NCBI RefSeq assembly: GCF_039970775.1
Contig: NZ_JBDVLG010000056.1
Coordinates: 472 to 64,471, forward strand
Direction: 5' to 3'
DNA length: 64,000 nucleotides
From: Roseobacter sp.
GTDB taxonomy: Bacteria; Pseudomonadota; Alphaproteobacteria; Rhodobacterales; Rhodobacteraceae
Numbering within the stretch: position 1 is the stretch's first letter; each line of letters begins with the position of its first letter. Below are positions 1 through 42,692 of this stretch, one piece after another. The notes beneath the pieces are model-generated. The model saw only the letters and a program-made list of their open reading frames with translations. It searched no databases and was not told the DNA's origin. Position numbers and translations under genes: made by a program.

Positions 1-2539
1 AATCATCGATCTCAATATCGATGCCCATTTCACCTATTATCTTTAGGTTCCGCTCGATCACGTCATTGCGCGCATCAAGAAAAGCAGATTCCAAGAGCTC
101 GAATGTTATCTTACGCGAAGGTAAATTTAACCGCGAAAGATGGGCGCCAAGTTCCGGGTCATTGAGACGGTTCGCCGAAACATTTACAGAAACACGCGGC
201 ACCACCAGCCCGGCTTTTTCCCAGACCCCCACATCATAAAGAGACCGACGCAGCACCAGATCGTCAAATTGCGCAATCAACCCCATATCCCCGGCCGTTT
301 GCAAAAACTCATCCGGCATCATCAGCCCGTATTTCGCACTTTCCCAACGCACCAGCGCTTCCAAGCCGGTCACCTCCAGTGTGGTTGCATCAAACTGAGG
401 TTGATAATAGCACGTGATTTCACCTTGATCAAAACCCGCAAGTAAGGCGTCTGACGAATTTTTACGACGCCTCGCGTCTTCGCTCATTGTGGTGTCATAA
501 AACCGATGCCGCCCACGCCCCGCCTTTTTTGCTTCGTACAAAGCAAGGTCTGCGTTGATAAACAAATTGGTCCCTGCGGTCGGCAAACCGTCAACAACTG
601 AGATACCGATACTCGTCCCGATGTTGCACTCCTGCGGGCCATAATAAAACGGGCGCGACACCTCGCGGATGATATGCGCGGCCATCTCGTCCAAAAGAGC
701 ATCTTCCGGCGCATTAAAAAGCAGCGCAACAAACTCATCCCCACCAACGCGCGATACAAGCGCCGAGTCGGGTGTGTTTTTCTGCAAAATAGTCGCGACA
801 TGGCGCAATGTCGCATCGCCCGCATCATGCCCCATCGTATCATTGATTTGTTTGAACAGATCGACATCAAAATGCAGCACGGCAAGCCGCCCTGATTTTT
901 CGGACATTATTTCAATATGTTCCGTGTAGACCTCATCCAAACGCCTGCGATTTGCCAAACCGGTTAGCGCATCATGGCGGCTCTCATGTTCCAAACCGGC
1001 CCGCGCGATTTCCAGCTCTTGCGCGCGCAATTTATCCTCTGTGATATCAAAATTCACGCCGTAGTAACGCGGCCCGGTTTCTTCATCTTCGACGTATTTC
1101 CCCCGGCTGCGCACATGAATCACCGCCCCGTCAGCGGTCACCATTCGGTAATCGCGCGCCACATCTTTACCCTGCTCTAGACATTCCTCACTATGAGCCA
1201 CGACGCCCGCGCGGTCATCAGGGTGAATGAAACTGGCCCACGCGTCACCGGCCCTATGGTTTTCCCCATCTGTGATGCCCAACATCGCCAGCAATCGGTC
1301 ATCCCAAAACGCCTGGTTTTCGTTCAGGCTATATTCCCATCGCGCCATTCCGCCGGCGCCCATGACAACATCCAAACGTTCCGCCATGCGCCTGCTTTCA
1401 ATCTCAACGGTTTTGATATCGGTGATGTCTGTATCTATCCCGATGATCCGCACGGGCCTGCCCTGAGCGTTGCGGCGGATCACCCGCCCCCGCGTCAGGA
1501 TCCAGACCCAATGACCCTCTTTGTGGCGCTGACGAAACTTGTAGTTAATTATATCCGTCTCACCCAGATCGAGCCGCCGCCGGTAGTCGCGCAGATATCC
1601 TACATCTTGTGGATGCACTGTTGCCAACCAGGTGTCGCCCGTCTCAGGCACCACATCGTTTGGGCTATACCCTCTCAATTGCCGCCAGGTACGTGATAAA
1701 AAATGGCGTCCTCGTTCAAAATCATGGTCCCAAATACCCTGATAGGCACGCAGCACCGTTGTCCTCAAAAGCTCTTCATTTTCGGCGAAAATCGTACGGC
1801 CAACGGGTGTTTCCATCTCATCCGTGACGTCTGTCTCTGAAATGGTGATTTCCAGCGGGGTGCCATCGCTGGCACGCAGGCTAACGTGACCCTCCCCGAG
1901 CAGCGTCATATCCCCGCCTGTCGTTGTCACCCGGTAGGGCAAACACAGCCGGTCCTCCACCATCGATATCATTGCGGAAATCGCGTTTTGCACCATGCCA
2001 AGATCTTGTGAATGAACGGTTTTTAAATACTCCGCCACCCATAGATGCGGTAGTTCGGGAAGGCCTGCCTGTCCCTCTTCCGGCACGCTGCACGCCCCGC
2101 CCTCGACCGCAAACACCCAACGCCGCGCGGGCGATCCAACGGGCAACACCTCGGCCATGTCGTCGCGACGTACAATAATGTCAACGTATTGCCCCAGAAA
2201 TCCGGTTACTACGCCATCACTATCGGCCATGGGTTTTATCGAAAAAAGATGAACCTGATCACCCAGCTTAAGCGGCACCAGAGCCACATCCAACGCCGCG
2301 TGATTATGCCGCATAGCCTCCAGATGGTTGCTGGCCGCCTGCGATTGTGGATGAGGTAAAAATGCGCGTAAATCCGCACCACTCTGCAAATCATTCGTGC
2401 CCTGCACCTGCAAGGACCGGCACAGCGCATTGCATCTGTGTATTTTCAGATCGACAGACACGACGAATGCAGGCCCCGCCAGCGCCTCCACCAGCGGGTC
2501 AAACAAAGAAAATCCGTCGGCATTGCCCCCACGGCTCAT
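1..2539 (-). CDS. PAS/PAC-GGDEF-EAL c-di-GMP cyclase/phosphodiesterase (partial: C-terminus runs off the left edge; absent from the ORF track)
   Basis: Translated by hand from ATG at 2539 (MSRGGNADG...). The frame stays open to position 2. It contains PAS/PAC repeats (VHPQD, IHPDD, WVWILTRG), then HDALTGLANRR, FKQINDTMGHDAGD, RVGGDEF, LEALVRW and GIDIEIDD. Confidence 0.93.
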   Translation of the reverse strand, partial: MSRGGNADGFSLFDPLVEALAGPAFVVSVDLKIHRCNALCRSLQVQGTNDLQSGADLRAFLPHPQSQAASNHLEAMRHNHAALDVALVPLKLGDQVHLFSIKPMADSDGVVTGFLGQYVDIIVRRDDMAEVLPVGSPARRWVFAVEGGACSVPEEGQAGLPELPHLWVAEYLKTVHSQDLGMVQNAISAMISMVEDRLCLPYRVTTTGGDMTLLGEGHVSLRASDGTPLEITISETDVTDEMETPVGRTIFAENEELLRTTVLRAYQGIWDHDFERGRHFLSRTWRQLRGYSPNDVVPETGDTWLATVHPQDVGYLRDYRRRLDLGETDIINYKFRQRHKEGHWVWILTRGRVIRRNAQGRPVRIIGIDTDITDIKTVEIESRRMAERLDVVMGAGGMARWEYSLNENQAFWDDRLLAMLGITDGENHRAGDAWASFIHPDDRAGVVAHSEECLEQGKDVARDYRMVTADGAVIHVRSRGKYVEDEETGPRYYGVNFDITEDKLRAQELEIARAGLEHESRHDALTGLANRRRLDEVYTEHIEIMSEKSGRLAVLHFDVDLFKQINDTMGHDAGDATLRHVATILQKNTPDSALVSRVGGDEFVALLFNAPEDALLDEMAAHIIREVSRPFYYGPQECNIGTSIGISVVDGLPTAGTNLFINADLALYEAKKAGRGRHRFYDTTMSEDARRRKNSSDALLAGFDQGEITCYYQPQFDATTLEVTGLEALVRWESAKYGLMMPDEFLQTAGDMGLIAQFDDLVLRRSLYDVGVWEKAGLVVPRVSVNVSANRLNDPELGAHLSRLNLPSRKITFELLESAFLDARNDVIERNLKIIGEMGIDIEIDD

Positions 2540-2785
2540 AAGGCCCTCGCGCTTAAACCCAGCCTTGGTCATAGCAGGTTGAGCTTTAAGGGCGCGTTAT
2601 CAAATAAAAAATTAGTCGATTTGTACCGATTTCACCCCGTTCCTGCGGGTACGAAACGGTAGGGACACGCCCCGCCATGCTATCGGCATGCGCCAACATC
2701 CGTCCGCGCCGATAGACCGACAGGGGCATCCTCTGGCGCTCACCAGAGGCGCTATGCCGCCACCTTCAACGGCCGCGCCAACGCA

Positions 2786-2809
2786 GCGGCCCCGAAACAC
2801 CGGGGCCGC
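2786..2809 (-). terminator. GC-rich hairpin downstream of scoB, possible terminator
   Basis: GCGGCCCCG-aaacac-CGGGGCCGC, a 9-bp stem about 20 nt after the scoB stop; the U-tract is weak. Confidence 0.4.
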
Positions 2810-2829
2810 CAATGTCTGAGACTTGGGGG

Positions 2830-3453
2830 TTAAACGATCGTCGCGGCCGTTGCGGCGCGCAGCGCGTCCTCGGTCACACCATCTGCCGTCTCAACGATCC
2901 GCAAACCGCCCTCGACCACATCCAGAACACCAAGGTTGGTGATGATCCGGTCCACCACCCCCTGCCCCGTCAACGGCAGCGTACAGGCCGGCAGCAATTT
3001 ACTATCGCCATGTTTATTGGTGTGGTCCATCACCACAATCACACGCCCAACACCGGCGACCAAATCCATCGCGCCCCCCATGCCTTTGACCAACTTCCCG
3101 GGGATCATCCAATTCGCAAGATCACCGTTTTCGGCCACTTCCATAGCGCCCAAAATCGCCGCTGCAATCTTGCCACCACGGATCATGCCAAAGCTGGTCG
3201 CACTGTCAAAATAGGCAGTCCGGTCCAATTCGGTGATGGTCTGCTTGCCCGCGTTGATCAGATCCGCGTCCTCCTCACCCTCGACAGGAAAGGGGCCCAT
3301 GCCCAACATGCCGTTCTCGGATTGCAACGTAATATCTTTGTCGCCCACGTAATTCGCGACCAACGTCGGAATGCCGATGCCAAGGTTCACATACATGCCA
3401 TCTTCGAGCTCTTGTGCCGCACGTGCGGCCATTTGGTTGCGATCCCAAGACAT
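2830..3453 (-). CDS. scoB: 3-oxoacid CoA-transferase subunit B
   Basis: VNLGIGIPT, the catalytic-Glu motif QSENG and GMGGAMDL; it abuts the subunit A gene. Confidence 0.92.
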
Positions 3454-4157
3454 TATGTCGTCTCCTTCTGGCGGACTGTCCGTTGTTCGATACGTTTTTC
3501 GTGTGTTCCCTGAATCACGCGGTTTACATAGATGCCGGGCAAATGGATGCCATCGGGGTCAAGACTGCCCATGGGCACAATTTCTTCGACCTCAGCGACG
3601 CAGATGCGCCCACACATGGCGGCCGGCGGGTTGAAATTACGCGCGGTTTTGCGGAACACAAGGTTGCCCGACGGATCCGCCTTCCATGCTTTGACGATGG
3701 ACAGATCTGCAAAGATCCCTTCTTCCAGGATATAGGTCTCGCCGCCAAAATCTTTGTGCTCTTTGCCCTCAGCAATCACCGTCCCGACACCCGTTTTGGT
3801 GTAGAATCCCGGAATACCGCAGCCCCCCGCACGCATGCGCTCGGCCAACGTGCCTTGTGGGTTGAACTCCAGCTCCAGTTCTCCTGATAGGTACTGCCGC
3901 ATGAATTCCGCGTTTTCCCCAACATAGGAAGAGATCATTTTCTTGACCTGTTTGGATTGCAACAAGATGCCGATGCCGAAATCATCCACACCCGCGTTGT
4001 TTGACGCAAAGGTCAGGTCGTTGGTGCCCGCGTCTTTGATCGCCTGCAACAGCAGCTCTGGGATGCCACACAGGCCAAATCCACCCGCCGCAATCAACAT
4101 GCCGTCTTGCAAAACGTCCTCTAGCGCCAATGCCGCCGTGTCATAGATTTTATTCAT
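3453..4157 (-). CDS. scoA: 3-oxoacid CoA-transferase subunit A
   Basis: [22 protein letters not shown] and KTARNFNP are typical CoA-transferase family I alpha-subunit motifs. Confidence 0.92.
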
Positions 4158-4300
4158 GAAACCCCCATGTAAATGTCAGGCGCGCTGTTGGGCCGGGACC
4201 CGCGCCTGGTGATGCCGAATCCTAAGGCGAACTGTTTCGCGACCGGGCTCCATGTGCAACCATATTCCCACGCGCCAGCATCAAACCCCGGTGTCTCCCG

Positions 4301-5062
4301 TCAGGTGCGCGCCATCCAGCTTAGGGTTTCGTCTGTGGGTGCGGTGGGCTTGTATTCCGCCCCCAAAGGCCCGCGAAACCCCAATTTATCCACCAACCGA
4401 AAGATATGTGCATAGTTGATTTCGCCGGTATCCGGGGGCCCACGGTCAGGGACACTGGCAAATTGAATATGCCCGATCAACGGCAGCAAACGTTCAAGGC
4501 GGCGGCTCAGATCGCCCTCCATCAGTTGAACGTGGTAACAATCAAACATCAGCTTAAGGTTCGGCGCGCCGATCTCTTCGATAATCTGCTGGGCTTGCGC
4601 CGTTGTCGTCAGGAAATATCCCGGCGCGTCATAATGGTTTAACGGCTCAATCAATATTGAAATGCCATGGTGGCCCGCGGCTTCACAGGCGTATCGCAGC
4701 GCGCTGACAAAACACGCATGGGCCGCAGCGCCTTGGGCAAAACCGGCCATCACATGTATGTTTGCGGCCCCGATCTGGGCCGCATAGTGCACCGCCTCGT
4801 CGATCGCGGCGCGGGCCTCATATGTGCGCCCAACCAACGCCGACAGGCCATTGTCGCCCGCCGCCACGTCCCCGCGCCGGGTGTTCAACCCCAACATCGG
4901 CAACCCCGTTTCGGCCAGCGCCGCCACGACATCCTGCACAGGCACCTCGTATGGCCAATGACATTCCACCGCGTCAAACCCCGCAGCCTTGGCCGCACGA
5001 ATGGCATCGGGCAGGGGGCGGTCCGTCCAGAGAAACCCCAAATTCGCTGAAAACTGCGTCAT
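4301..5062 (-). CDS. otnI: 2-oxo-tetronate isomerase / hydroxypyruvate isomerase family
   Basis: FSANLGFLW, GFDAVE, IEPLN, FDCYHVQ and HIQFASVPDRG (Hyi family). The ATG at 5062 overlaps the otnC stop (ATGA), and the gene sits with otnK/otnC. Confidence 0.8.
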   Translation of the reverse strand: MTQFSANLGFLWTDRPLPDAIRAAKAAGFDAVECHWPYEVPVQDVVAALAETGLPMLGLNTRRGDVAAGDNGLSALVGRTYEARAAIDEAVHYAAQIGAANIHVMAGFAQGAAAHACFVSALRYACEAAGHHGISILIEPLNHYDAPGYFLTTTAQAQQIIEEIGAPNLKLMFDCYHVQLMEGDLSRRLERLLPLIGHIQFASVPDRGPPDTGEINYAHIFRLVDKLGFRGPLGAEYKPTAPTDETLSWMART

Positions 5063-5709
5063 GCGTCCCATTCCACGTCAAAATGCGTCACGATATCGGT
5101 GACCTGTTGGGGGCTCAGCATCCGCGCGTCATAGCCCCGCATCAACATCGCCAATCGCGCCGTATCTTCTAATTCTTCGATGGCATTGCAGGCGGCGTGC
5201 ACGTCCTTGCCCGCGACAACCGGCCCGTGATTGGCCAACATCACCGCGCTGCGTTTGCCCGCCAGCCCCCGCACCGCATCGCCCATGGCAGGGTCGCCCG
5301 GCCGGAAAAACGGCAACAGCTTGACCTTGCCCAGTTTCATAATCGCGTAAGGGGTAAGTGGGGGCAGAAAATTATCGGGATCCACGTCTGGCATCATCGA
5401 CCACGCGACCGAATGACATGCATGCAAATGCACCACCGCACCCGCGTTGCTGCGGGTGTCGTAAAACGCGGTGTGCAGGGGCATTTCTTTGGTGGGCGGG
5501 TCGCCGTCAATCAACCGCCCCTGCCCGTCAAACCGGCTCAGGCGTGCGGGGTCGAGCCGGCCAAAACTGGTGCCTGTGGGCGACACCAACAACCCGCCAT
5601 CCGGTGTGCGCGCCGAAATATTCCCCGTGCTGCCCCCCGTGAGGCCACGGTCAAACATCGATTTGGCCAGCAGGCAGATATCTTCGCGCAGGGTCACGTC
5701 GGCGGTCAT
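5059..5709 (-). CDS. otnC: 3-oxo-tetronate 4-phosphate decarboxylase (class II aldolase family)
   Basis: STGNISAR, PTKEMPLH, VVHLHACH and LANHGPVV; directly downstream of a DUF1537 kinase. Confidence 0.88.
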   Translation of the reverse strand: MTADVTLREDICLLAKSMFDRGLTGGSTGNISARTPDGGLLVSPTGTSFGRLDPARLSRFDGQGRLIDGDPPTKEMPLHTAFYDTRSNAGAVVHLHACHSVAWSMMPDVDPDNFLPPLTPYAIMKLGKVKLLPFFRPGDPAMGDAVRGLAGKRSAVMLANHGPVVAGKDVHAACNAIEELEDTARLAMLMRGYDARMLSPQQVTDIVTHFDVEWDA

Positions 5710-6974
5710 GTCAGATCCAGTTTTGAAAGGGCTTGGGCAAAGAACCCTTCGGCGCCAAAATTCCCCGATTTAAGCGCCAAGGCAATCATATGCCCCGCGC
5801 TGTGGCAATACGTCCAAGGAACACCGGGCGCGATTTCGGCGCCGACGTCAAGGCGCGACACGCCCAACGCCTGCGTCACTGCGCCCGACGTTTCGCCCCC
5901 CGCCACCACAAAACGGCGTGCGCCGCAGTCTCGGGCGACCAGCGCCAGACTGGCAAGCGCACGTTCCACCAATGCCCCCGCCGCACCCGCGCCCAATTCT
6001 GACTGGGCGGCGCGCACCGCATCGGGTTCGGCCGTTGCATAGACAAGCGGCGCCGCGGCAAGGTCTTGGTCGCGCAGCCAGTCTTCGGCGGCGGTGCTAC
6101 CGGTATGAAAGAGCGTCAGAGGGTCCAGCCGGTAACTGGGGGCCACCTTGGCGTAGGCCGCCACCTGCGCCCGTGTCATCGCAGAACAACTGCCCGACAA
6201 GACGACCCCACCCCCCCCCGCAGTGGGCGGCGCAGATTTAGCGGTATCGCCCGTTAACATCCCATCCGCCATGTATAACGCGGGCAAGGGCGCAGCGACC
6301 GCACTGCCCCCTGTTAGCAAGGGCATATCCCGGCAGGCAGACGCGATCAGATCCAGATCGGCGTTGGCGACCGCATCCACCACCACATGCCCGACACCGT
6401 CTAAGGCCAACTGCCCCAGCGCCGCCCGGATCGCATCTGCGCCCTGCGCCACGGTCAGCCGGTCCACCAGACCGGTTTGCCCCGTGACTTGCGGCGCCAG
6501 CAACCGCATCAGGCTGCTGTCACGCATCGGCGTCAGCGGGTGATCTTTCATCGGGCTTTCGGCCAAGGGCTGCTGCCCCACAAACAGGTGACCCATAAAG
6601 ATCGACCGCCCGTTTTCGGGGAACGCGGGGCAATAGATCGTTTGTGCCACCCCCAAATCGGCCATCAGGGCCTCGGCCACCGGGCCGATATTGCCGTCAG
6701 GCGTGCTGTCGAAGGTAGAGCAATACTTCCAGAAAAATCGCTTGGCCCCTGCGGCCTGCAACCACGCCAAAGCCGCGCGGCATTCGGCCACGGCGTCGGC
6801 CACAGGGCTGGTGCGGCATTTCAGGGCAATCACCTCAAAGGCCGCCGCGTCGGTGGGCGGGGCGTCGGGCACCCCGATCCGCAGCGAAACCTTGACCCCG
6901 CTGCGCGCCAACAGCCCGGCAAGATCCGTTGCCCCGGTGAAATCATCGGCGATACAGCCCAACACGGTGGTCAT
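5706..6974 (-). CDS. otnK: 3-oxo-tetronate kinase (DUF1537 / four-carbon acid sugar kinase)
   Basis: GCIADDFTGATD, WKYCSTFDST, LSGSCS, AGGETSG and ALKSGNFG. The likely start is MTTVLG at 6974; the track's 7106 start overlaps ltnD. Confidence 0.9.
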   Translation of the reverse strand: MTTVLGCIADDFTGATDLAGLLARSGVKVSLRIGVPDAPPTDAAAFEVIALKCRTSPVADAVAECRAALAWLQAAGAKRFFWKYCSTFDSTPDGNIGPVAEALMADLGVAQTIYCPAFPENGRSIFMGHLFVGQQPLAESPMKDHPLTPMRDSSLMRLLAPQVTGQTGLVDRLTVAQGADAIRAALGQLALDGVGHVVVDAVANADLDLIASACRDMPLLTGGSAVAAPLPALYMADGMLTGDTAKSAPPTAGGGGVVLSGSCSAMTRAQVAAYAKVAPSYRLDPLTLFHTGSTAAEDWLRDQDLAAAPLVYATAEPDAVRAAQSELGAGAAGALVERALASLALVARDCGARRFVVAGGETSGAVTQALGVSRLDVGAEIAPGVPWTYCHSAGHMIALALKSGNFGAEGFFAQALSKLDLT

Positions 6975-7005
6975 ACCCCAGCCACCGTCTGCACGCGGCA
7001 CCGGG

Positions 7006-7899
7006 TCATGCATCCCCCGGCAGGACAAGCCCTGCATTGCGCGCATAAACCTTGGCCACCGCCGCATCATCTTCTGCACCCAGACCTTGGCCCGCAGCCG
7101 CCACAAATTGCTGCAACGCTGCGGCGGTCAATGGCGCGCTAAACTTGTCTGCCTTGGCGATGTCGAGCACGATCCCGAGATCTTTTAGCCAAATATCAAC
7201 CGCGCTATGGGGGGTATAATCCCCCGCAACAATATGCGGCGCACGGTTTTCCAACATCCAACTGGTGCCCGCGCATTTGCTGATCACATCGACAAAGGTT
7301 TCGGGTTTCACACCTTGCGTCATGCCAAAGGTCAGCGCTTCGGCCATGGTCGCGATATGCACGCCAGCCAACAGCTGATTGACCGCCTTCATCGCGGACC
7401 CCGCCCCCACATCGCCCAGCTGAAACACCGTCTCGGCACAGGCATCAAGGACCGCTGCCGCGGCTGCAAAGGCGTCTTTTGACCCCGCTGCCATCACCGA
7501 CAGCTGCCCTGACGCGGCCTTAACCGCACCGCCTGAAATCGGTGCATCAAGATAGTGCACCCCATATTCGGCCGACCGCGCGCCCAGATCACGCGCGACA
7601 TCGGGCGGGACCGTCGCACACGACACAACCACAGCGCCGGGTTTCAGCAAGGGCACCACGCCGTCCGCCCCAAACAACACCGTTTGGGTTTGCTGGGCGT
7701 TCAGGACCACCACAACAACCGTGTCCAGATCTGCGGCGACGTCGGGCAATGCCCCCTCAGCGCCCCCTTCGGCGATGAATTTGGCACATAGATCCGGGTC
7801 TAAGTCGACCCCGAACGTCGCATGCCCTTCGCGTAAAACGGACTGCGCGATGCCATATCCCATCGAGCCCAAACCAATCACGGCTGTCTTTTGCACCAT
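7006..7899 (-). CDS. ltnD: L-threonate dehydrogenase (beta-hydroxyacid dehydrogenase family)
   Basis: VIGLGSMG Rossmann motif, LDAPISGG and MKAVNQLLAGVHIA; context with otnK-otnC-otnI. Start at MVQKT (7899). Confidence 0.85.
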   Translation of the reverse strand: MVQKTAVIGLGSMGYGIAQSVLREGHATFGVDLDPDLCAKFIAEGGAEGALPDVAADLDTVVVVVLNAQQTQTVLFGADGVVPLLKPGAVVVSCATVPPDVARDLGARSAEYGVHYLDAPISGGAVKAASGQLSVMAAGSKDAFAAAAAVLDACAETVFQLGDVGAGSAMKAVNQLLAGVHIATMAEALTFGMTQGVKPETFVDVISKCAGTSWMLENRAPHIVAGDYTPHSAVDIWLKDLGIVLDIAKADKFSAPLTAAALQQFVAAAGQGLGAEDDAAVAKVYARNAGLVLPGDA

Positions 7900-8089
7900 A
7901 CCTGCGTCCTCCCAGACCCTTGCACCATATGGCGCATCAGCATTCATAGGCACTATGTGCTATATTCCGTTAGATTCAAAAGACTTTCCCCAAGGACGTG
8001 ACGTCGCATGCCCTGCCCGAAACCCGCACGGAACATGACGCAATCGCACGCGCCTTTGGCGACGAGCCACCGGGGGTTCGCACCCCGCC

Positions 8090-9136
8090 CTATGGGCCCT
8101 CGGCAACACGCGCGGCCAGCGATATCTTTTGGCCAGATGCCGCAGATCTGTAAATCGCATCCTTGATCCGAATGACGGTCAGATAATCATGCGCTTGGTT
8201 TTCAACCGCGTGCCCGTGCAACACCGCCTGCACCACGTGGTTTTGTAGATGATACACACAATCGCCGCCGAAACCGCCCCACGTGTCAGGCGGCGATACC
8301 ATCACATGGGCCTGATCGCCCTGCGCCCGAAACTGCACCGCGCCGTCCCCTGTCAGGGTCAAAACCCCCTTGGATCCTTCAAACAACGCCTCGCCCATGG
8401 TGCGGCGGTGGTTATCGGCGGGGTGGTCGCAATGGCGGTTGCCATCCAGCACCGTGCGCACGCCATGCGGGTGGTCAAAGATCACAAAACCCGCGTCTTC
8501 GCCTGCAATCGCTGGGTTAATCTGGCGCAAATCCGCATAGACGGCGCTTGGGTTGCCAAACAGGAACCGGAAGGTATCGACCCAATGCACCCCGGTTTCG
8601 TGGATCAAAAACCGAGGCATCTGCTGGAAATAGGGCTGGCGGTCCAGATAGGCGTTTGGCCCCTGCCCGTCACCGGGCCGCACCCTGAAACACGCCTGAA
8701 GCGGGGTGCCAATGCGGCCTGCATCCAGTTGCGATTTGATGCACCGGTACCACGGCATAAACCTGAAATTCTCGTGTATGATCAGCGTTGCGCCCGCGGT
8801 TTCGGCCAGGTCTGCCAGAGCGGTGGCCGTGTCGATATCTAGGCAAAACGGTTTTTGGCAGATGATGGTTTTCACACCGGCGGCCACAGCGGCCCGGATT
8901 GTGTCGCGATGGCCTTCGGGAGGCAGAATGATATCAAGGATATCAGGCACCACCTGCGTCAACATGGCGTGCACATCCTCAAAGGCGGGCAGCCCCGTGG
9001 CCTGCGCCAGTTCGATATTGCGATCTGCGGCCCCCACGCAAGTAACCTGCGCAATGCGCGCCCATGCGTCATAATGAAACTGGCTGAAATACCCCGCACC
9101 AACGCAGGCAACGCGCAGCGCACCGTCTGACATCAC
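8090..9136 (-). CDS. Gfo/Idh/MocA family NAD(P)-dependent oxidoreductase
   Basis: VACVGAGYFS, ICQKPF, HENFRF and ETGVHWVD; translationally coupled to the upstream IPMDH-like gene. Confidence 0.88.
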   Translation of the reverse strand: MMSDGALRVACVGAGYFSQFHYDAWARIAQVTCVGAADRNIELAQATGLPAFEDVHAMLTQVVPDILDIILPPEGHRDTIRAAVAAGVKTIICQKPFCLDIDTATALADLAETAGATLIIHENFRFMPWYRCIKSQLDAGRIGTPLQACFRVRPGDGQGPNAYLDRQPYFQQMPRFLIHETGVHWVDTFRFLFGNPSAVYADLRQINPAIAGEDAGFVIFDHPHGVRTVLDGNRHCDHPADNHRRTMGEALFEGSKGVLTLTGDGAVQFRAQGDQAHVMVSPPDTWGGFGGDCVYHLQNHVVQAVLHGHAVENQAHDYLTVIRIKDAIYRSAASGQKISLAARVAEGP

Positions 9137-10224
9137 ACAGCCCTTAAGGCAGCGCGCACCGCATCTGCCGCCTGATCCGTCGTAGCCGCACCGCCAAGGT
9201 CGCGCGTCAAAGCGCCGCCTTGGGCAATCGCGGCTTCGGTCGCGGCCCGCAGGCGCACGCCATCAGCGCCCAGCGCGGCATTGTCGTACCGTGTCCCTAG
9301 CCAGTCCAACATCATCGCCCCCGACAAGATCATCGCAAAGGGGTTCGCCACCCCCTGCCCCGCGATATCGGGCGCGGACCCGTGGCAGGGTTGAAACACC
9401 GCATGATCCAGCCCGATGTCCGCCGATGGTGCAACGCCCAAGCCCCCCATCAGCCCAGCGCCCAGATCAGACAGGATATCGCCAAACATATTCTCCGTCA
9501 CCAACACGTCAAAATCCCATGGTTTTTGCACAAACCAAAGCGCTGTCGCGTCCACATAGGCGTGATCGCTGGTCAGGTCGGGGTGCTGCGTCGCCTCTTT
9601 ATCGAAAATCTCGCGGAAGAATGCAAAGGCGCGAAAGACGTTCGCCTTGTCGACGCAGGTCACGTGCCCCGGCCCGCGCCCGGTGTCTTTTCGGGTGCGC
9701 GCCATATCAAAGGCGAACTTGAACAACAGTTCAGACGTTTTGCGCGTGATCAACAGCGTCTCGCGCGCTTCGTTTTCGGTGACCTCGCCGCAGCCTTGGG
9801 TGTGAAACAACCCTTCGGTGCTTTCGCGGATCAACACGAAATCTACGGGTTTGTCATCCGGCAGGTTCAACGGGGTCTTTTGGCCCGGAAAAATCCGCAC
9901 AGGCCGCACACCAGCAAAGAGGTTTAGCGCCTTGCGCAGATCAATTTGCGGCGAGATTTCCGTCCCATCGGGATAGCGCACCGATGGTAACCCCATGGCA
10001 GATAACAAAATCGCATCCGCTCCGCGCGCGATCTGCATAGACGTGTCTGGCAAAGAGTGCCCCGTGTTCGCATAATGCGCAGCCCCCGCGGCACAACCGA
10101 TAAAATTTAGGCCATAGCCCCCCTGAACCGCCAGATCCGCCAAAATATCCAGCGTCGGACGGATGATTTCGGGGCCGATCCCGTCGCCTTCGAACACCGC
10201 AACATCAAACGTGTTTTTCATCAC
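9133..10224 (-). CDS. Isocitrate/isopropylmalate/tartrate dehydrogenase family protein, atypical (catalytic Tyr replaced by Phe)
   Basis: GDGIGPEI, LRK...VRP, VDKAN, ENMFGDILSD and PCHGSAPDIAG. It reads RESTEGLF where the family has RExTxGxY. Start is GTG 10224 or ATG 10221. Confidence 0.88.
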   Translation of the reverse strand: MMKNTFDVAVFEGDGIGPEIIRPTLDILADLAVQGGYGLNFIGCAAGAAHYANTGHSLPDTSMQIARGADAILLSAMGLPSVRYPDGTEISPQIDLRKALNLFAGVRPVRIFPGQKTPLNLPDDKPVDFVLIRESTEGLFHTQGCGEVTENEARETLLITRKTSELLFKFAFDMARTRKDTGRGPGHVTCVDKANVFRAFAFFREIFDKEATQHPDLTSDHAYVDATALWFVQKPWDFDVLVTENMFGDILSDLGAGLMGGLGVAPSADIGLDHAVFQPCHGSAPDIAGQGVANPFAMILSGAMMLDWLGTRYDNAALGADGVRLRAATEAAIAQGGALTRDLGGAATTDQAADAVRAALRAV

Positions 10225-10298
10225 TTATCGTGCCTCTTTGTATTTCAGCAGCAGTGCCCTAAGATCACTCAAGATTATCAGTAGCAGCGCATCACAAA

Positions 10299-10314
10299 TT
10301 AATGCATACATTAA
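10299..10314. promoter_or_regulatory. Palindromic operator in the divergent promoter of the IPMDH-like and ABM genes
   Basis: TTAATG-CATA-CATTAA, also a tandem TTAATGCAT x2. The core resembles GntR/FadR-type sites (inference). Confidence 0.6.
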
Positions 10315-10355
10315 TGCATGCGTAAATGAGCCCCAAGGCAGTTACAAGGATCCAT

Positions 10356-10646
10356 ATGTTTGCCGTCACGGTTACCCTGCACATCACACCCGCCCATTGG
10401 GATACCTTTGTGCCCCTTATGGCCCAGAACGCTGCACGGTCGCTGGCAGATGAAACGGGGTGCCACCAATTTGACGTCGCCACAGACCCGGCACACCCGC
10501 ATGAGATGTTTTTATACGAACTTTACACCGATGCCGCCGCCTTTGACGTGCATCTGAACACCGCGCATTTCAAAACCTTTGACACCAGCACGGCCCATAT
10601 GATCGCCGATAAAACCGTGCGGACCTACGCACAGGTGGTCCAATGA
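10356..10646 (+). CDS. ABM-domain protein (putative quinol monooxygenase / LsrG-like)
   Basis: ETGCHQFDV, FLYELYTDAAAFDVHLNTAHF; AAGGA RBS before ATG 10356. Confidence 0.82.
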   Translation: MFAVTVTLHITPAHWDTFVPLMAQNAARSLADETGCHQFDVATDPAHPHEMFLYELYTDAAAFDVHLNTAHFKTFDTSTAHMIADKTVRTYAQVVQ

Positions 10647-11449
10647 CCGACTGGGAGGTCTTTGCAGTCAAATACGCCGACCGCAATGCCCGCACGCGCG
10701 GTGACAGTTTTGTATTTGATGACACCCCTGACGTGCCCCATCCGATGGATTATTTCATGTGGGTGCTGCGGCGCGGGGCCGAAACCATTTTGGTCGACAC
10801 CGGTTATGACATGCACGAAGCCACCCGCCGCGACCGCCCCATTCGTCAGGACCCGGTTGTGTCGCTTGCGCCATTGGGCGTGCGCCCCGAGGCAATCACA
10901 TCGGTGATTGTGACTCACCTACACTATGATCACGCGGGCGGGCTGCATTTGTTCCCCAACGCCAAACTACACATGCAGACGGCGGAAATGGCCTATGCCA
11001 CGGGCCCCTGCATGTGCCATGACACGCTAAACATGCCCTACACAGCGGGTCACATCTGCGAGGCGGTTAAACGTCTATTTTCGGGGCAGGTCGTGTTTCA
11101 CGATGGCGATGCGCAGATCGCGGATGGCGTCACGGTGCATTGCATTGGCGGGCACAGCCGTGGTTTGCAGGCCGTGCGGGTGCGCACCGCTGCGGGTTGG
11201 TTGGTTCTGGCCTCTGATGCGACGCATTTTTACGAAAACATCTTTGCGCGCAAACCGTTCCCCATTGTCGTCGATCTGCAAAATATGCTCGATGGGTTTA
11301 ACCGGCTGGAAACGCTGGCCTCGCATAAATCGCTGATCGTGCCGGGGCACGACCCGCTGGTGACGCGCGCCTACCCAAAAGCCATGGCCGATCACATCTG
11401 GCGTCTGGATCACGGGCCCACCGCGCCCGAGCTGTTTTTACCCGCCTGA
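10643..11449 (+). CDS. Metallo-beta-lactamase-fold lactonase (N-acyl homoserine lactonase family)
   Basis: ILVDTG, THLHYDHAGG (HxHxDH), GGHSRG, LASDATH and VPGHD; ATGA coupling with the ABM gene. Confidence 0.85.
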   Translation: MTDWEVFAVKYADRNARTRGDSFVFDDTPDVPHPMDYFMWVLRRGAETILVDTGYDMHEATRRDRPIRQDPVVSLAPLGVRPEAITSVIVTHLHYDHAGGLHLFPNAKLHMQTAEMAYATGPCMCHDTLNMPYTAGHICEAVKRLFSGQVVFHDGDAQIADGVTVHCIGGHSRGLQAVRVRTAAGWLVLASDATHFYENIFARKPFPIVVDLQNMLDGFNRLETLASHKSLIVPGHDPLVTRAYPKAMADHIWRLDHGPTAPELFLPA

Positions 11450-11471
11450 CGGGTGGGGCACCGCCCAAAAC

Positions 11472-11488
11472 TGCCCAAAATGCAGGCG
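11472..11488 (+). promoter_or_regulatory. Candidate NtrC-type site upstream of ureD
   Basis: TGCC-N9-GGCG, preceded by a GCCCAAAA direct repeat. It resembles Rhodobacter NtrC sites and fits nitrogen control of urease (inference). Confidence 0.4.
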
Positions 11489-11595
11489 CCTTGCGCCTCG
11501 CGCGCTTTGGGGAAATCTCTGCTCTGGTCAAATGCGAGGCCACATGTGACATTAGCGTCCGAAATGAGGCTGGTAAGGACCAAAAAGACGTGCTG

Positions 11596-12411
11596 ATGCG
11601 ACCTGCAACATTGCTGGATCAGCCACGTGCGATCGGGTCTGCGATGGTGTCCAGCAAAGCGCGCGCCGGGCAGCCCTGTCTGGATGGGTTGTATCAGGCC
11701 GGGGCGCTCAAGGTCGTCTTTCCGCGCAACCACCACACCGTCGAGAGCATTTTGGTCAACACCGCCGGTGGCATCACCGGGGGGGATCGGTTTGACATCA
11801 CAGCCACCGCCGGCGCGGGATCGCATCTGACGCTGGCCACCCAAGCCGCCGAACGCGCCTATCGCGCACAGGACGGCCAAACCGGCCAACTGCACACACA
11901 GCTGACCGTCGAAGACGACGCGCAATTGCACTGGCTGCCGCAAGAAACCATCCTATTCGAAGGGTCCGCGCTATCACGCACGCTGAACGTCGACATCGCC
12001 CCCACGGGTCGGTTTTTGATGGTCGAACCGGTGCTGTTTGGCCGCCGCGCCATGGGTGAAGATCTGCACAGCGCCAGCTTTCGCGACAGGGTCGATATCC
12101 GCATGGACGGTGCGCTGGTGTACCGCGATGGTGTGGCCCTCGACGGGGATATCGCCGCCGCATTGGACCGCCCCGCGATTGGGGCAGGCGCGCGCGCGAT
12201 GGCCAATGTGGTGTGGGTCGCCCCCGAAGCCGAAGGGGCCCTGCCCATCGTGCGTGACCTCATTGGCCCCATCGGTGGTGCAAGCCTACTGCAGCCAAAT
12301 TTATTGGCCGCACGGCTGTTGGCCGCAGACGGGTTTGACCTGCGCCAACGGCTTGTGCCGTTGCTCGACCACCTGACAAAAAACACCTTACCGATAAGCT
12401 GGAGACTGTAA
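11596..12411 (+). CDS. ureD: Urease accessory protein UreD
   Basis: NTAGGITGGDRF, QAAERAYRA and WLPQETILF; first gene of the ure cluster. Probable start 11596. Confidence 0.92.
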   Translation: MRPATLLDQPRAIGSAMVSSKARAGQPCLDGLYQAGALKVVFPRNHHTVESILVNTAGGITGGDRFDITATAGAGSHLTLATQAAERAYRAQDGQTGQLHTQLTVEDDAQLHWLPQETILFEGSALSRTLNVDIAPTGRFLMVEPVLFGRRAMGEDLHSASFRDRVDIRMDGALVYRDGVALDGDIAAALDRPAIGAGARAMANVVWVAPEAEGALPIVRDLIGPIGGASLLQPNLLAARLLAADGFDLRQRLVPLLDHLTKNTLPISWRL

Positions 12412-12414
12412 CCC

Positions 12415-12717
12415 ATGCAGCTGACACCCCGCGAAAAAGACAAACTACTGGTGGCGATGGCCGCCCAAGTCGCGCGCACCAGATTGGCGCGCGGCGTCAA
12501 GCTCAACCACCCCGAGGCCATCGCGTTGATCACCGATGCGGTCGTCGAAGGTGCGCGCGATGGTCGGTCCGTCGCGGACATGATGCAGGCGGGCGCCCAA
12601 GTGATCACCCGTGATCAATGCATGGAAGGCGTGCCCGAAATGATCCACGACGTGCAGGTCGAGGCAACGTTTCCCGATGGCACCAAACTGGTCACAGTCC
12701 ACAACCCGATCCGCTAG
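12415..12717 (+). CDS. ureA: Urease subunit gamma
   Basis: [12 protein letters not shown]...[17 protein letters not shown]. Confidence 0.98.
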
Positions 12718-12746
12718 GACTGACCTATTTTCAAGAGGATAATGCT

Positions 12747-13052
12747 ATGATCCCAGGCGAAATCATACCCCAAGACGGCGAGATCATCCTGAACGCCGAC
12801 GCCGTGGCCGTCACTGTGATGGTCGCCAACACCGGCGACCGCCCGGTACAGGTCGGCAGCCACTATCACTTTGCCGAAAGCAACCCCGCGTTGGACTTTG
12901 ACCGCGATATCGCACGCGGTTGCCGGTTGGACATCGCCGCAGGCACCGCCGTACGGTTTGAACCCGGCCAGCGCCGCGAAGTGCAGTTGATCCCGCTGTC
13001 CGGCGCGCGCCGGGTCTTTGGGTTCAACCAACAGGTGATGGGCGATCTATAA
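12747..13052 (+). CDS. ureB: Urease subunit beta
   Basis: MIPGE...[15 protein letters not shown]...[15 protein letters not shown]; GAGGA RBS before 12747. Confidence 0.97.
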
Positions 13053-13120
13053 ACGCCCCCCTCCACAGACATGTTATTTTGATATCGCCTGACCGCGACC
13101 CGAAACCAGAAAGGTACATC

Positions 13121-14830
13121 ATGCCAGCACCCATTTCGCGCGCGAATTACGCCGCCATGTTCGGCCCCACCACCGGCGACAAGGTTCGTCTGGCCGATAC
13201 CGACCTGATCATTGAGGTAGAACGCGACTTCACCACCTACGGCGAAGAGGTCAAATTTGGCGGCGGCAAGGTGATCCGCGATGGCATGGGGCAAAGCCAA
13301 GTCACACGCGCAGGTGGGGCTGTCGATACGGTCATCACCAACGCGCTGATCGTGGACCATAGCGGGATCTACAAGGCAGACGTGGGCCTGAAAAACGGGC
13401 GTATCCACAAGATCGGCAAGGCGGGCAACCCCGACACACAACCCGGTGTGGATATCATCGTTGGCCCTGGCACCGAGGCGATCGCGGGGGAAGGCCGGAT
13501 TTTGACGGCAGGTGGTTTTGACAGCCACATCCACTTTATCTGCCCACAGCAGATCGACGATGCGCTGCATTCCGGCGTGACCACCATGTTGGGCGGCGGC
13601 ACCGGCCCCGCACATGGCACGCTGGCCACCACCTGCACGCCCGGGCCTTGGCACATCGGACGGATGCTACAGGCCGTTGACGGGTTTGCCATGAACATCG
13701 GCGTATCAGGCAAAGGCAACGCCAGCCAACCCGCCGCATTGGTCGAGATGGTCGAGGGCGGTGCCTGCGCCATGAAGTTGCACGAAGACTGGGGCACCAC
13801 GCCTGCCGCCATCGATTGCTGCCTGTCGGTGGCCGATGACATGGACGTGCAGGTGATGATCCACACCGATACGCTCAATGAATCCGGGTTCGTGGAAAAC
13901 ACGGTTGCCGCCCTAAAAGGCCGCACGATCCACGCGTTTCACACCGAAGGCGCGGGCGGCGGCCATGCCCCGGATATCATCAAGATCTGCGGCGACGCGA
14001 ATGTTTTACCATCGTCCACCAACCCGACGCGGCCCTTTACCGTTAATACCTTAGAAGAACATCTGGATATGTTGATGGTGTGCCACCATCTGGACAAATC
14101 GATCCCCGAAGATGTCGCCTTTGCCGAAAGCCGGATCCGCCGCGAAACCATCGCCGCCGAAGATATCCTGCATGATATGGGTGCGTTTTCGATCATCGCC
14201 TCTGACAGCCAAGCGATGGGCCGCGTGGGCGAGGTGTTGATCCGCACATGGCAAACCGCCGACAAGATGAAGAAACAGCGTGGGCGACTGGCGGATGAAA
14301 CCGGCGAAAACGACAACCTGCGTGTGCGTCGGTACATCGCGAAATACACGATTAACCCGGCGATTGCACATGGGGTGTCCCATGAAATCGGCAGCATCGA
14401 GGAAGGCAAGCGCGCCGATCTGGTGTTGTGGAACCCTGCGTTTTTCGGCGTGAAGCCCGAGATGGTCCTGATGGCGGGCACGATTGTCTGCGCGCAAATG
14501 GGCGACCCCAATGCGTCGATCCCCACACCCCAGCCCGTTTATAGCCGGCCCATGTTCGGTAGCTTTGGGCGGTCGGTCGAACACTCTGCCATCACCTTTG
14601 TCAGCGCCGCCGCCGAGGCCGCTGGTCTGCGCGACACGTTGGGCCTGCGCAAACAGGTGGTCGCCGTGAAAAACACCCGTGGCATTGGCAAAAAAGACCT
14701 GATCCTAAATGACGCCCTACCCCATATCGAGGTCAACCCCGAGACCTACGAGGTGCGTGCCGATGGTGAACTACTCACCTGCCAACCCGCCGAAGTGCTG
14801 CCCATGGCGCAGCGGTATTTCATGTTTTGA
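13121..14830 (+). CDS. ureC: Urease subunit alpha
   Basis: [17 protein letters not shown] (carbamylated Lys), HTDTLNE, MVCHHL and SDSQAMGR; start MPAPISR at 13121. Confidence 0.98.
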
Positions 14831-14935
14831 GGTCCGAGTAGGAACCAACGGTGTCTTTGCCACGCGCAAAAGGAACAAGTTGCGCCCTATATTTCTGGCC
14901 CTCGATACAGCGCCTTTTGTCCGTCTTAACCGCGA

Positions 14936-42654: not shown

Positions 42655-42692
42655 AATAACCCCTCTATTGCGTTGCGCAGGAACACCCTGCC

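Follow-up and report, generated by a model that had tools for sequence, protein, structure and literature searches.

The closest described system is the four-step L-threonate/D-erythronate pathway, in which LtnD or DenD, OtnI, OtnK and OtnC act in turn and L-threonate is converted to DHAP and CO2 (Zhang et al. 2016 PNAS, as summarised in PMC12994016; E. coli ygbJKLM). The Roseobacter sp. locus studied here, part of a 64,000-nt stretch referred to as the window (NZ_JBDVLG010000056.1, assembly GCF_039970775.1, positions 472 to 64,471), holds this gene set in the same order as E. coli ygbJKLM, and next to it four genes that are not part of that pathway. We find that these four genes belong to a widespread, uncharacterised module that in many bacteria is found with the last two enzymes of the pathway and, presumably, shares its end products. 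In the loci examined outside the genus Roseobacter this module carries, in place of LtnD/DenD and OtnI, an IPMDH-family enzyme, an ABM-fold protein, a Gfo/Idh/MocA protein and a lactonase, a GntR-FCD regulator in place of the E. coli repressor YgbI, and TTT or TRAP transporters instead of a YgbN-type permease.

Other ways of supplying such enzymes have been described. The Ltn3D bypass of Paracoccus litorisediminis (PMC12994016) also provides OtnK/OtnC with a 3-oxo acid without LtnD and OtnI and is likewise found in marine Rhodobacterales, yet Ltn3D is a single short-chain dehydrogenase (SDR L-threonate 3-dehydrogenase), whereas here there are two unrelated dehydrogenases, an ABM protein and a lactonase, and no SDR was seen in the window's cluster. 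The ApnO route of D-apionate catabolism (Carter et al. 2018; PMC13753588) follows the same logic, from acid sugar to 3-oxo acid to phosphate ester to decarboxylation, by an oxidoisomerase, a DUF1537 kinase and a decarboxylase, with an optional dehydrogenase plus lactonase in front. However, the kinases here are of OtnK type and not OiaK type (86-126 bits against a cut-off of 700), the decarboxylase has the class II aldolase fold and is not RuBisCO-like, and ApnO is described as KARI-like, whereas this Gfo is a classical Gfo/Idh/MocA protein.

Two of the extra proteins have relatives of known chemistry. The ABM protein shares the fold of LsrG, the phospho-DPD isomerase, and the proposed chemistry, shifting a keto group along a hydroxy-ketone through an enediol, is of the same kind, but it is not an LsrG orthologue, there are no lsr genes, and the proposed substrate is an unphosphorylated 2-oxo sugar acid. 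The IPMDH-like enzyme shares with tartrate dehydrogenase, D-malate dehydrogenase, isocitrate dehydrogenase and IPMDH the fold, the metal-binding aspartates, the catalytic Lys and the three substrate arginines, and an ICDH-like Ser-x-Gln sits where ICDH has Ser113-x-Asn115. It differs in that the catalytic Tyr is replaced by Phe, no equivalog cut-off is reached and its genomic partners are sugar-acid enzymes.

Architecture of the Roseobacter locus

The first-pass annotation, made from the sequence alone, described ltnD-otnK-otnC-otnI, a coupled IPMDH-like/Gfo pair, a divergent coupled ABM/MBL pair and a palindromic operator between the pairs. This description is confirmed in full, and all eight ORFs are real and intact (Table 1). 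The IPMDH stop and Gfo start overlap as TGATG, ABM and MBL overlap as ATGA, and otnK/otnC and otnC/otnI also overlap. The palindrome is the only match in the 64-kb window, and across 22 genomes of the genus it is the only conserved block in an otherwise unalignable intergenic region. The 190-nt gap at 7900-8089 between ltnD and the Gfo gene holds no ORF remnant and shows no RNA structure (z = 0.28). The first-pass annotation cautioned that this gap may hold a separate ltnD promoter, and the caution is supported by a conserved -35/-10-like block. Neither a gntR regulator nor a transporter for the module was found in the window.

Table 1. Features of the locus (positions are those of the 64,000-nt window; bit scores are given against the equivalog cut-offs)
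Position	Strand	Feature	Supporting observations
4301-5071	-	otnI-like 2-oxo-tetronate isomerase (xylose-isomerase-like TIM barrel)	PF01261; best NCBIfam hit NF043033 OtnI, 284 bits, below the cut-off of 325
5059-5709	-	otnC, 3-oxo-tetronate 4-phosphate decarboxylase (class II aldolase fold)	NF043034 OtnC equivalog, 291 against 250; in the tree nested inside the OtnC clade of the core clusters, sister to the Tateyamaria core OtnC (99/96)
5706-6974	-	otnK, 3-oxo-tetronate kinase (DUF1537)	NF043035 OtnK equivalog, 537 against 350; PF07005 and PF17042; start refined to ATG 6974; the only DUF1537 kinase found in this genome
7006-7899	-	ltnD, L-threonate 2-dehydrogenase	NF043037 LtnD equivalog, 405 against 350; start ATG 7899, preceded by a GGGAGGA ribosome-binding site
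7952-7979	-	Candidate promoter of ltnD-otnKCI	-35-like TTGAAT (7979-7974), 16-nt spacer, -10-like CATAGT (7957-7952); conserved in 7 genomes of the genus while the surrounding sequence is not; below the threshold of the consensus scanner
8090-9133	-	Gfo/Idh/MocA oxidoreductase, proposed front-end dehydrogenase (lactol or aldose to lactone)	PF01408, PF22725 and PF02894, no equivalog; model pLDDT 94; nearest structure 5UHW, an A. radiobacter oxidoreductase with NAD+ and Mg2+
9133-10221	-	IPMDH/ICDH-family dehydrogenase with the catalytic Tyr replaced by Phe (RESTEGLF)	PF00180; F139 aligns with Tyr139 of T. thermophilus IPMDH; R96, R106, R132, K192, D224, D248 and D252 are kept
10300-10325		Operator of GntR type (GT..AC core), inferred from sequence	Palindrome TAATGCATACATTA (10300-10313) plus an overlapping second copy TAATGCATGCGTAA (10312-10325)
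10356-10646	+	ABM-fold protein, proposed 2-oxo to 3-oxo acid-sugar isomerase or tautomerase	PF03992; LsrG equivalog 40.6 against 135; LsrG among the nearest solved homologues; true start is the second ATG, with an AAGGA ribosome-binding site, where all orthologues start; E33, C36, E55, Y57, H66, H71 and K86 invariant in 49 orthologues
10643-11449	+	Metallo-beta-lactamase-fold (MBL) lactonase	PF00753; intact HxHxDH site; H92-x-H94-x-D96-H97, H171, D192 and H236 conserved; AHL-lactonase equivalogs 52-68 against 360-475

Linkage of the module to OtnK and OtnC in other bacteria

Comparative genomics supports a functional link between the four extra genes and the otn genes. Of 36 fully flanked IPMDH+Gfo loci from other genera, 33 have ABM, 33 a lactonase (MBL, or SMP30 in its place), 35 a GntR-FCD regulator and 23 OtnK/OtnC within 10 kb, leaving 13 without OtnK/OtnC at this distance, whereas LtnD and OtnI were found in none. 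OtnK/OtnC also lie within 10 kb in nearly all genomes of the genus. A tendency of the four genes to occur without otn genes had been named beforehand as grounds for abandoning the link, and these counts show that this is not the case. The typical order is OtnC-OtnK-MBL-ABM-[TctABC or DctPQM] <> IPMDH-Gfo-GntR, carboxylate transporters of the TTT or TRAP type usually sitting in the cluster, and the genes are shuffled but kept together in Hoeflea, Sneathiella, Pelagibius, Marinomonas and Woeseiaceae. The kinases and decarboxylases of these clusters pass the OtnK and OtnC equivalog cut-offs.

The invariant partners are IPMDH(Phe) and ABM, and Gfo and the lactonase are an exchangeable front end. 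The Gfo gene is absent from some otherwise complete clusters, and SMP30/SGL lactonases take the place of MBL in Marinomonas, Woeseiaceae and a further taxon (G031). On Rhizobium and Agrobacterium plasmids, where GntR-IPMDH-ABM-...-OtnK-OtnC is one operon, ALDH plus two extended SDRs replace Gfo plus lactonase. We regard these as non-orthologous replacements that keep the function. The operator TAAYGTATRCATTA is conserved across classes, from Roseobacter to Marinomonas and Rhizobium, and lies upstream of the IPMDH operon in about 35 loci of other genera and upstream of the Rhizobium and Agrobacterium operons. Phe in place of the catalytic Tyr is found in 78 of 79 orthologues and on the Rhizobium and Agrobacterium plasmids.

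A proposed second entry into the pathway

The first-pass annotation had inferred that the four genes form an upstream module funnelling a C5/C6 sugar, a lactone or an ascorbate-breakdown product into tetronate, an interpretation that our data support only in part. The tie to the otn genes holds, but the module does not feed tetronate through LtnD. As elsewhere it occurs with OtnK/OtnC only and never with LtnD or OtnI, it most likely enters at or just before the OtnK step and stands in for LtnD/OtnI, while an origin of its substrate in ascorbate breakdown remains a conjecture.

Based on these data we propose the following scheme, to which we assign a probability of roughly 0.58. Gfo would oxidise a lactol or acid-aldose to a lactone, which the MBL lactonase would open to the free sugar acid. 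This may be an aldonate or, fitting the carboxylate transporters and the retained dicarboxylate-binding arginines better, an aldaric (pentarate-type) acid. IPMDH(Phe) would then oxidise the 2-hydroxyl to a 2-oxo acid without the decarboxylation and C3-protonation step that needs Tyr, and ABM would move the keto group from C2 to C3 through an enediol, as LsrG and OtnI do. A 3-oxo-pentarate would then lose CO2 to give 3-oxo-tetronate, and the single OtnK and OtnC of this genome would convert the product to DHAP and CO2. What the comparison itself establishes is the co-occurrence and order of the genes, the replacements in the front end, the shared operator sequence, the descent of the window's OtnC from within the core-cluster clade, the single DUF1537 kinase and the Tyr to Phe exchange with the other catalytic residues kept, whereas the order of steps, the role of each enzyme and the substrate class are inferred from sequence and context alone.

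Some observations sit uneasily with this scheme. The genus keeps OtnI next to OtnC even where LtnD is missing, which is odd if ABM already does the job of OtnI. IPMDH-family enzymes normally need a beta-carboxylate and the arginine that binds it is retained, which argues against a simple aldonate substrate, and carboxylate transporters together with an aldose-type dehydrogenase are not explained by a neutral sugar. Penturonic acids, the substrate that the pentarate variant needs, are not known to be common. In addition, the 13 loci without nearby OtnK/OtnC and the lack of a regulator or transporter for the module in the window count against it, and ltnD probably has its own promoter, so co-regulation of the two halves is unproven.

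Two other chemistries for the same module are unlikely, and about equally so. In the first, IPMDH(Phe) is a true oxidative decarboxylase acting on a branched 3-carboxy sugar acid, such as a 3-C-carboxy-tetronate released from a carboxy-lactone, and releases an enediol that ABM ketonises to 3-oxo-tetronate. Loss of Tyr would prevent protonation at C3, a protonation that would give the 'wrong' 2-oxo tautomer. All beta-carboxylate and metal ligands are indeed retained, a carboxylate transporter plus a lactonase fits a carboxy-lactone, and one contig (L107) has only SMP30, IPMDH, OtnK and OtnC. However, we know of no such natural substrate apart from aceric acid, which is 5-deoxy and would not give an OtnK substrate, and the Rhizobium front end, with a sugar ABC transporter and three oxidoreductases, fits stepwise oxidation of a linear sugar better.

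In the second, the module is reductive and acts on longer chains. ABM and the lactonase would act first on an ascorbate-type enediol lactone to give a 2,3-diketo acid, IPMDH(Phe) would reduce the 2-oxo group to a 3-keto acid, and OtnK and OtnC would act on a C5 or C6 3-oxo acid, a non-homologous version of the E. coli yiaK-lyxK-sgbH logic. ABM and MBL are translationally coupled, and OtnK/OtnC homologues accept 3-oxo-D-gluconate in vitro (PMC12994016). The E. coli TRAP system YiaMNO takes 2,3-diketo-L-gulonate, LsrG acts on a 2,3-dione, and ascorbate products are plentiful around algae. On the other hand, the clusters hold no epimerases to process L-xylulose 5-phosphate, whereas a C4 route ends directly in DHAP, Gfo has no role in this scheme, the Rhizobium version lacks a lactonase and imports a neutral sugar, and in this genome the same single OtnK must serve the L-threonate route.

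It is less likely still that the two halves are only neighbours in this genome, the divergon being a separate, perhaps decaying, unit and ltnD-otnKCI working alone on L-threonate from its own promoter. The lack of regulator and transporter in the window and the promoter-like block upstream of ltnD fit this view, as does the variable content between Gfo and otnC within the genus, where two genomes have no otn genes nearby. Yet all four ORFs are intact and 74-84% identical to orthologues across the genus, the operator is retained, OtnC is by descent the module's own decarboxylase, and the linkage with OtnK/OtnC recurs in distant taxa and on plasmids. The alternative raised in the first-pass annotation, degradation of AHL or AI-2-type signals, is rejected, since AHL lactonases and LsrG, although the best-scoring named families, score far below their cut-offs (67.5 against 375 for AiiA; Table 1 for LsrG), an unrelated SMP30 lactonase replaces MBL and ALDH replaces the lactonase in Rhizobium, the conserved partners are OtnK/OtnC, carboxylate transporters and a GntR-FCD regulator, and no lsrK or lsrF was seen among the conserved neighbours in the gene-family clustering of the 80 loci.

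In our best reading the locus is a composite of two entries into one pathway end, the known route from L-threonate through LtnD, OtnI, OtnK and OtnC, and an uncharacterised module under a GntR-type operator whose invariant core in other bacteria is an IPMDH-family enzyme lacking the catalytic Tyr, an ABM-fold protein, OtnK and OtnC. In this view the module has been joined to ltnD and otnI in the genus Roseobacter and in this genome has lost the adjacent regulator, and the four genes most likely form a second route into the end of tetronate catabolism.

Genes, starts and operator of the locus

The observation made in the first-pass annotation held, as ORF listing and profile searches confirmed the eight genes (see the table), whereas its interpretation was only partly supported. 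LtnD, OtnK and OtnC pass the NCBI equivalog cut-offs. OtnI remains below its cut-off and yet it is the best-scoring family for its protein, ahead of hydroxypyruvate isomerase (251 bits against a cut-off of 353), and its position next to otnC matches that of E. coli ygbM. The order ltnD-otnK-otnC-otnI is that of E. coli ygbJKLM, and the flanks of the locus are scoAB and ureD. None of the four additional proteins reaches any equivalog. Reading of the sequence refined three starts (otnK ATG 6974, Gfo ATG 9133 and ABM ATG 10356) and showed translational coupling of IPMDH with Gfo (TGATG) and of ABM with MBL (ATGA).

Positions of the features in the window and in the related loci that were compared
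Sequence	Feature	Position	Strand	Basis or content
Window	otnI	4301-5071	-	NF043033, 284 bits against a cut-off of 325
Window	otnC	5059-5709	-	NF043034, 291.4 against 250
Window	otnK	5706-6974	-	NF043035, 537.2 against 350; DUF1537 domains PF07005 and PF17042
Window	ltnD	7006-7899	-	NF043037, 404.9 against 350
Window	190-nt gap	7900-8089
Window	Gfo/Idh/MocA gene	8090-9133	-	PF01408, PF22725 and PF02894
Window	IPMDH-family gene	9133-10221	-	PF00180, 287 bits
Window	Putative operator	10300-10313		1 mismatch to TAAYGTATRCATTA
Window	Overlapping second copy of the operator	10312-10325
Window	ABM gene	10356-10646	+	ABM Pfam domain; LsrG (NF007791) 40.6 against 135
Window	MBL-fold gene	10643-11449	+	HxHxDH and distal His/Asp metal ligands
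Window	TRAP transporter	41611-44572		About 31% identical to the cluster-linked DctM proteins
L126 (Sulfitobacter mediterraneus M342 plasmid)	Complete core cluster	2273-14536		Between an IS6 transposase and a tyrosine recombinase
L127 (A. tumefaciens HAMBI 105 plasmid)	Operon with IPMDH(Phe), ABM, OtnK and OtnC	2553-13539
L128 (R. etli IE4771 plasmid)	Operon with IPMDH(Phe), ABM, OtnK and OtnC	3557-15510		Next to tkt, fbp and fba
L042 (genome G031)	Cluster	6000-11600		Lower GC3 than its flanks
L124 (Woeseiaceae)	Reduced module	7787-13598		OtnK-OtnC-ABM-IPMDH-sodium:solute symporter-SMP30-GntR
L107	Reduced module	6187-11092		OtnC-OtnK <> SMP30-IPMDH only
L022 (same genus)	Aspartate-dehydrogenase-like gene	11574-12383		PF01958 and PF03447
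L021 (same genus)	Aspartate-dehydrogenase-like gene	7475-8380		PF01958 and PF03447
L036 (same genus)	Aspartate-dehydrogenase-like gene	15287-16141		PF01958 and PF03447
L032 and L033 (same genus)	Aspartate-dehydrogenase-like gene			PF01958 and PF03447
L021, L026, L028, L030, L031, L034, L035 (same genus)	otnC-otnI without ltnD and otnK			Directly after Gfo, or after gntR or the aspartate-dehydrogenase-like gene
L108-L123 (Bradyrhizobium and related)	IPMDH(Phe) in an unrelated operon	around 10001

The intergenic region between the divergent pairs holds TAATGCATACATTA, which differs at one position from the module operator TAAYGTATRCATTA, together with an overlapping second copy. It is the only match in 64 kb at up to 3 mismatches, so that no further copy lies in front of ltnD, and in an alignment of 22 genomes of the genus it is the only conserved block in an otherwise unalignable spacer. 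At up to 2 mismatches it recurs 27-171 nt upstream of the IPMDH operon in about 35 loci of other genera, and about 120 nt upstream of the SMP30 gene that precedes IPMDH in Marinomonas, whereas only one hit anywhere else was seen in about 1.4 Mb of flanks. By our estimate a 14-mer at up to 2 mismatches is expected about 0.07 times per 21-kb locus. The site also lies 40-44 nt upstream of the first gene of the related Rhizobium and Agrobacterium plasmid operons. Its GT..AC core is typical of GntR-family sites, and a GntR-FCD gene follows Gfo in most clusters. In contrast, tblastn found no gntR, TctABC or close DctPQM homologue within the window. The only TRAP transporter there belongs to a cuyA-like unit noted in the first-pass annotation, and is therefore not an obvious transporter for this module.

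The gap between ltnD and Gfo was searched for remnants of gntR or of the aspartate-dehydrogenase-like gene seen elsewhere in the genus, and none were found; nor did it show a terminator, a consensus promoter or RNA structure. As a block of TTGAAT, 16 nt and CATAGT, about 50 nt upstream of ltnD, is conserved in seven genomes of the genus, ltnD-otnKCI probably has its own promoter, as the first-pass annotation suspected.

Conservation of the gene set within and beyond the genus

The IPMDH-like gene has 74-84% identical orthologues in nearly all sampled genomes of the genus, and in the 24 loci compared the divergon always lies next to ureD. Downstream of Gfo the content varies. Gfo is followed by a gntR gene overlapping its stop, by an aspartate-dehydrogenase-like gene on the other strand, or by nothing, and then by ltnD-otnK-otnC-otnI (about half of the loci), by otnC-otnI only (seven loci), or by no otn genes (two loci). 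The window has the most compact form. The aspartate-dehydrogenase-like gene sits repeatedly beside the cluster, on the opposite strand and in varying positions, and is absent from the window and from other genera. That seven genomes retain OtnI without LtnD is not explained if ABM is the isomerase.

A scan of species-representative genomes with an alignment of the IPMDH-like protein returned 80 loci, out of at least 593 relatives, from Roseobacteraceae, Paracoccaceae, Rhizobiaceae, Sneathiellaceae, Rhodovibrionaceae, Oceanospirillaceae, Granulosicoccaceae, Woeseiaceae and Bradyrhizobium. By tblastn and all-against-all clustering, the 36 loci outside the genus that have at least 9 kb on both sides and IPMDH and Gfo adjacent contain ABM in 33, a lactonase in 33, GntR in 35, OtnK or OtnC in 23, and LtnD and OtnI in 0. 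These relatives are not independent samples, although the taxonomic spread and the rearrangements argue against mere inheritance. The usual order is OtnC-OtnK-MBL-ABM-[TctA-TctB-TctC or DctM-DctQ-DctP] <> IPMDH-Gfo-GntR, and the kinases and decarboxylases of these clusters pass the OtnK and OtnC equivalog cut-offs. Gene order is reshuffled in Hoeflea, Sneathiella, Pelagibius and Woeseiaceae while the set stays together, and Marinomonas, Woeseiaceae and the genome G031 use an SMP30/SGL lactonase instead of MBL. Two reduced versions were found, of which the Woeseiaceae locus lacks Gfo and carries a sodium:solute symporter; it is conceivable that lactonase, IPMDH(Phe), OtnK and OtnC are the minimal working set.

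In the cluster on the Sulfitobacter mediterraneus plasmid the automatic (PGAP) names are generic, 'N-acyl homoserine lactonase family' and 'putative quinol monooxygenase'. The mobile elements that flank this cluster and the lower GC3 of the cluster in G031 both point to horizontal spread.

A second architecture was found on plasmids of Rhizobium etli, R. phaseoli, R. gallicum, Sinorhizobium fredii and Agrobacterium tumefaciens, most of them conjugative, which carry IPMDH(Phe) relatives. In the two read in detail (A. tumefaciens HAMBI 105 and R. etli bv. mimosae IE4771), one operon of up to 11 genes holds a sugar ABC transporter, an extended SDR, GntR-FCD, IPMDH(Phe), ABM, a type II HAD hydrolase, an aldehyde dehydrogenase, OtnK and OtnC, and the R. 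etli record adds a second extended SDR after otnC. The invariant set is therefore the regulator, the operator, IPMDH(Phe), ABM, OtnK and OtnC, whereas the front end is exchangeable, being either Gfo, a lactonase and a carboxylate transporter, or SDRs, ALDH and a sugar transporter. Unlike these, Bradyrhizobium and related genomes have the IPMDH(Phe) gene in an unrelated operon (CoA-transferase family III, a Dpp-like ABC transporter, a Zn-dependent alcohol dehydrogenase, then IPMDH(Phe)) without Gfo, ABM, OtnK/OtnC or the operator, so the enzyme has a second, different use.

Features of the enzymes and their descent

The IPMDH-like protein has the Iso_dh fold, and its R96, R106, R132, K192, D224, D248 and D252 align with Arg94/104/132, Lys185 and Asp217/241/245 of T. 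thermophilus IPMDH. The catalytic Lys-Tyr pair of the family is broken, however, as F139 stands in place of Tyr139. The motif RE[ST/Q]TEGLF was found in 78 of 79 orthologues and on the Rhizobium and Agrobacterium plasmids. The best equivalog score is 297 against 540 (AksF2), with LeuB at 240 against 353 and TTC at 246 against 470, and no LeuB, tartrate dehydrogenase, ICDH or homoisocitrate dehydrogenase cut-off is reached. By our reading of the alignment, six and four residues before the first Arg the protein has Ser-x-Gln, where ICDH has the Ser-x-Asn that binds the gamma-carboxylate, which points to a polar or anionic group on C3. In the established mechanism of this family Lys is reported to be the base for hydride transfer and Tyr to protonate C3 after decarboxylation (Aktas and Cook 2009). 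Loss of Tyr therefore fits an enzyme that oxidises a 2-hydroxy acid without completing the decarboxylation and protonation step.

The nearest characterised relative of the ABM protein is LsrG, which moves a keto group along a hydroxy-dione, although the protein scores far below the LsrG cut-off. The MBL-fold protein has a complete dinuclear metal site, with H92, H94, D96, H97, H171, D192 and H236 conserved in 46 orthologues, and yet it scores only 42-68 bits against cut-offs of 360-475 for the quorum-quenching AHL lactonases (AiiA, AidB, AhlS, AttM and YtnP). The predicted Gfo structure is confident (pLDDT 94) and its top fold matches are all Gfo/Idh/MocA oxidoreductases, in keeping with its N-terminal Rossmann and C-terminal alpha/beta domains. 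It is closest to an unpublished A. radiobacter oxidoreductase crystallised with NAD+ and Mg2+ (PDB 5UHW). We considered whether this entry might be the apionate oxidoisomerase ApnO, but this is not supported, since the entry title says only 'oxidoreductase ... NAD+ and magnesium', no paper among those searched cites it, and ApnO is described as KARI-like. An attempt to infer the ligand from the transporter binding proteins gave nothing, as the best PDB relatives (4p47 for DctP and 25hk for TctC) are distant and their molecule names name no ligand.

In maximum-likelihood trees the OtnC of the window is nested within the core-cluster OtnC clade, sister to the Tateyamaria cluster (99/96), whereas its OtnK falls in a different clade from the kinases of the other Rhodobacterales clusters. 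This fits an ancestral module whose kinase was replaced when ltnD-otnK was inserted. As the genome has only one DUF1537 kinase, both entries must share it.

A proposed second entry to 3-oxo-tetronate

While the conserved association, the regulator site, the residue pattern and the replacements are established by our comparisons, the order of reactions is inferred from sequence alone. We propose that Gfo and the lactonase (or the SDRs and ALDH) produce a free sugar acid, that IPMDH(Phe) makes the 2-oxo acid and ABM the 3-oxo acid, and that OtnK and OtnC give DHAP and CO2. Two substrate variants fit, an aldonate (tetronate) or a pentarate, whose 3-oxo form would lose CO2 spontaneously to give 3-oxo-tetronate. 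The pentarate variant explains more of the observations, namely the carboxylate transporters next to an aldose-type dehydrogenase, the retained dicarboxylate ligands, and the three oxidoreductases of the R. etli front end, which match the three oxidations needed to turn a neutral pentose into a pentarate; its weakness is that it needs penturonates, which are not known to be common. A decarboxylating variant and an ascorbate or diketo-acid variant cannot be excluded. A hexarate (C6 di-acid) is rejected on chemistry, as decarboxylation of a 3-oxo-hexarate gives a 4-oxo-pentonate, which is not a beta-keto acid that OtnC could use. The degradation of AHL or AI-2 signals, which the first-pass annotation offered as an alternative, is rejected on scores and context.

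Other bypasses into this pathway end, Ltn3D and ApnO, have been described (PMC12994016, PMC13753588), but among the papers that could be searched none on this cluster was found for OtnK/OtnC together with IPMDH, LsrG or TTT transporters, for L-erythronate or for ascorbate catabolism. In its furthest form, to which we give a probability of about 0.5, our reading is that of a previously undescribed, widespread and mobile catabolic pathway that would reach 3-oxo-tetronate through two new enzyme activities. The first would be an IPMDH-family dehydrogenase that has given up its catalytic Tyr and acts as a non-decarboxylating 2-dehydrogenase of a sugar acid or di-acid, and the second an ABM-fold 2-oxo/3-oxo acid-sugar isomerase, a non-homologous analogue of OtnI. 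The substrate would be an as yet unrecognised marine and rhizosphere metabolite, such as a penturonate or pentarate-type or tetrose-type compound, or a product of ascorbate breakdown.

OtnK and OtnC are annotated automatically as L-threonate or D-erythronate enzymes, and yet they are shown here to be part of a second conserved gene set with no assigned substrate. The module was seen in about 60 loci from two proteobacterial classes, on Roseobacteraceae plasmids, and in a variant form on conjugative Rhizobium and Agrobacterium plasmids, and its conserved operator and regulator offer a direct handle for finding the inducer. Resolving the pathway would correct 'AHL lactonase family' annotations that could be misread as quorum quenching, and would assign functions to an IPMDH subfamily that breaks the Lys-Tyr rule of its family and to an ABM protein now annotated as 'quinol monooxygenase'. 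It would also name a carbon source used by many marine Rhodobacterales and by legume symbionts.
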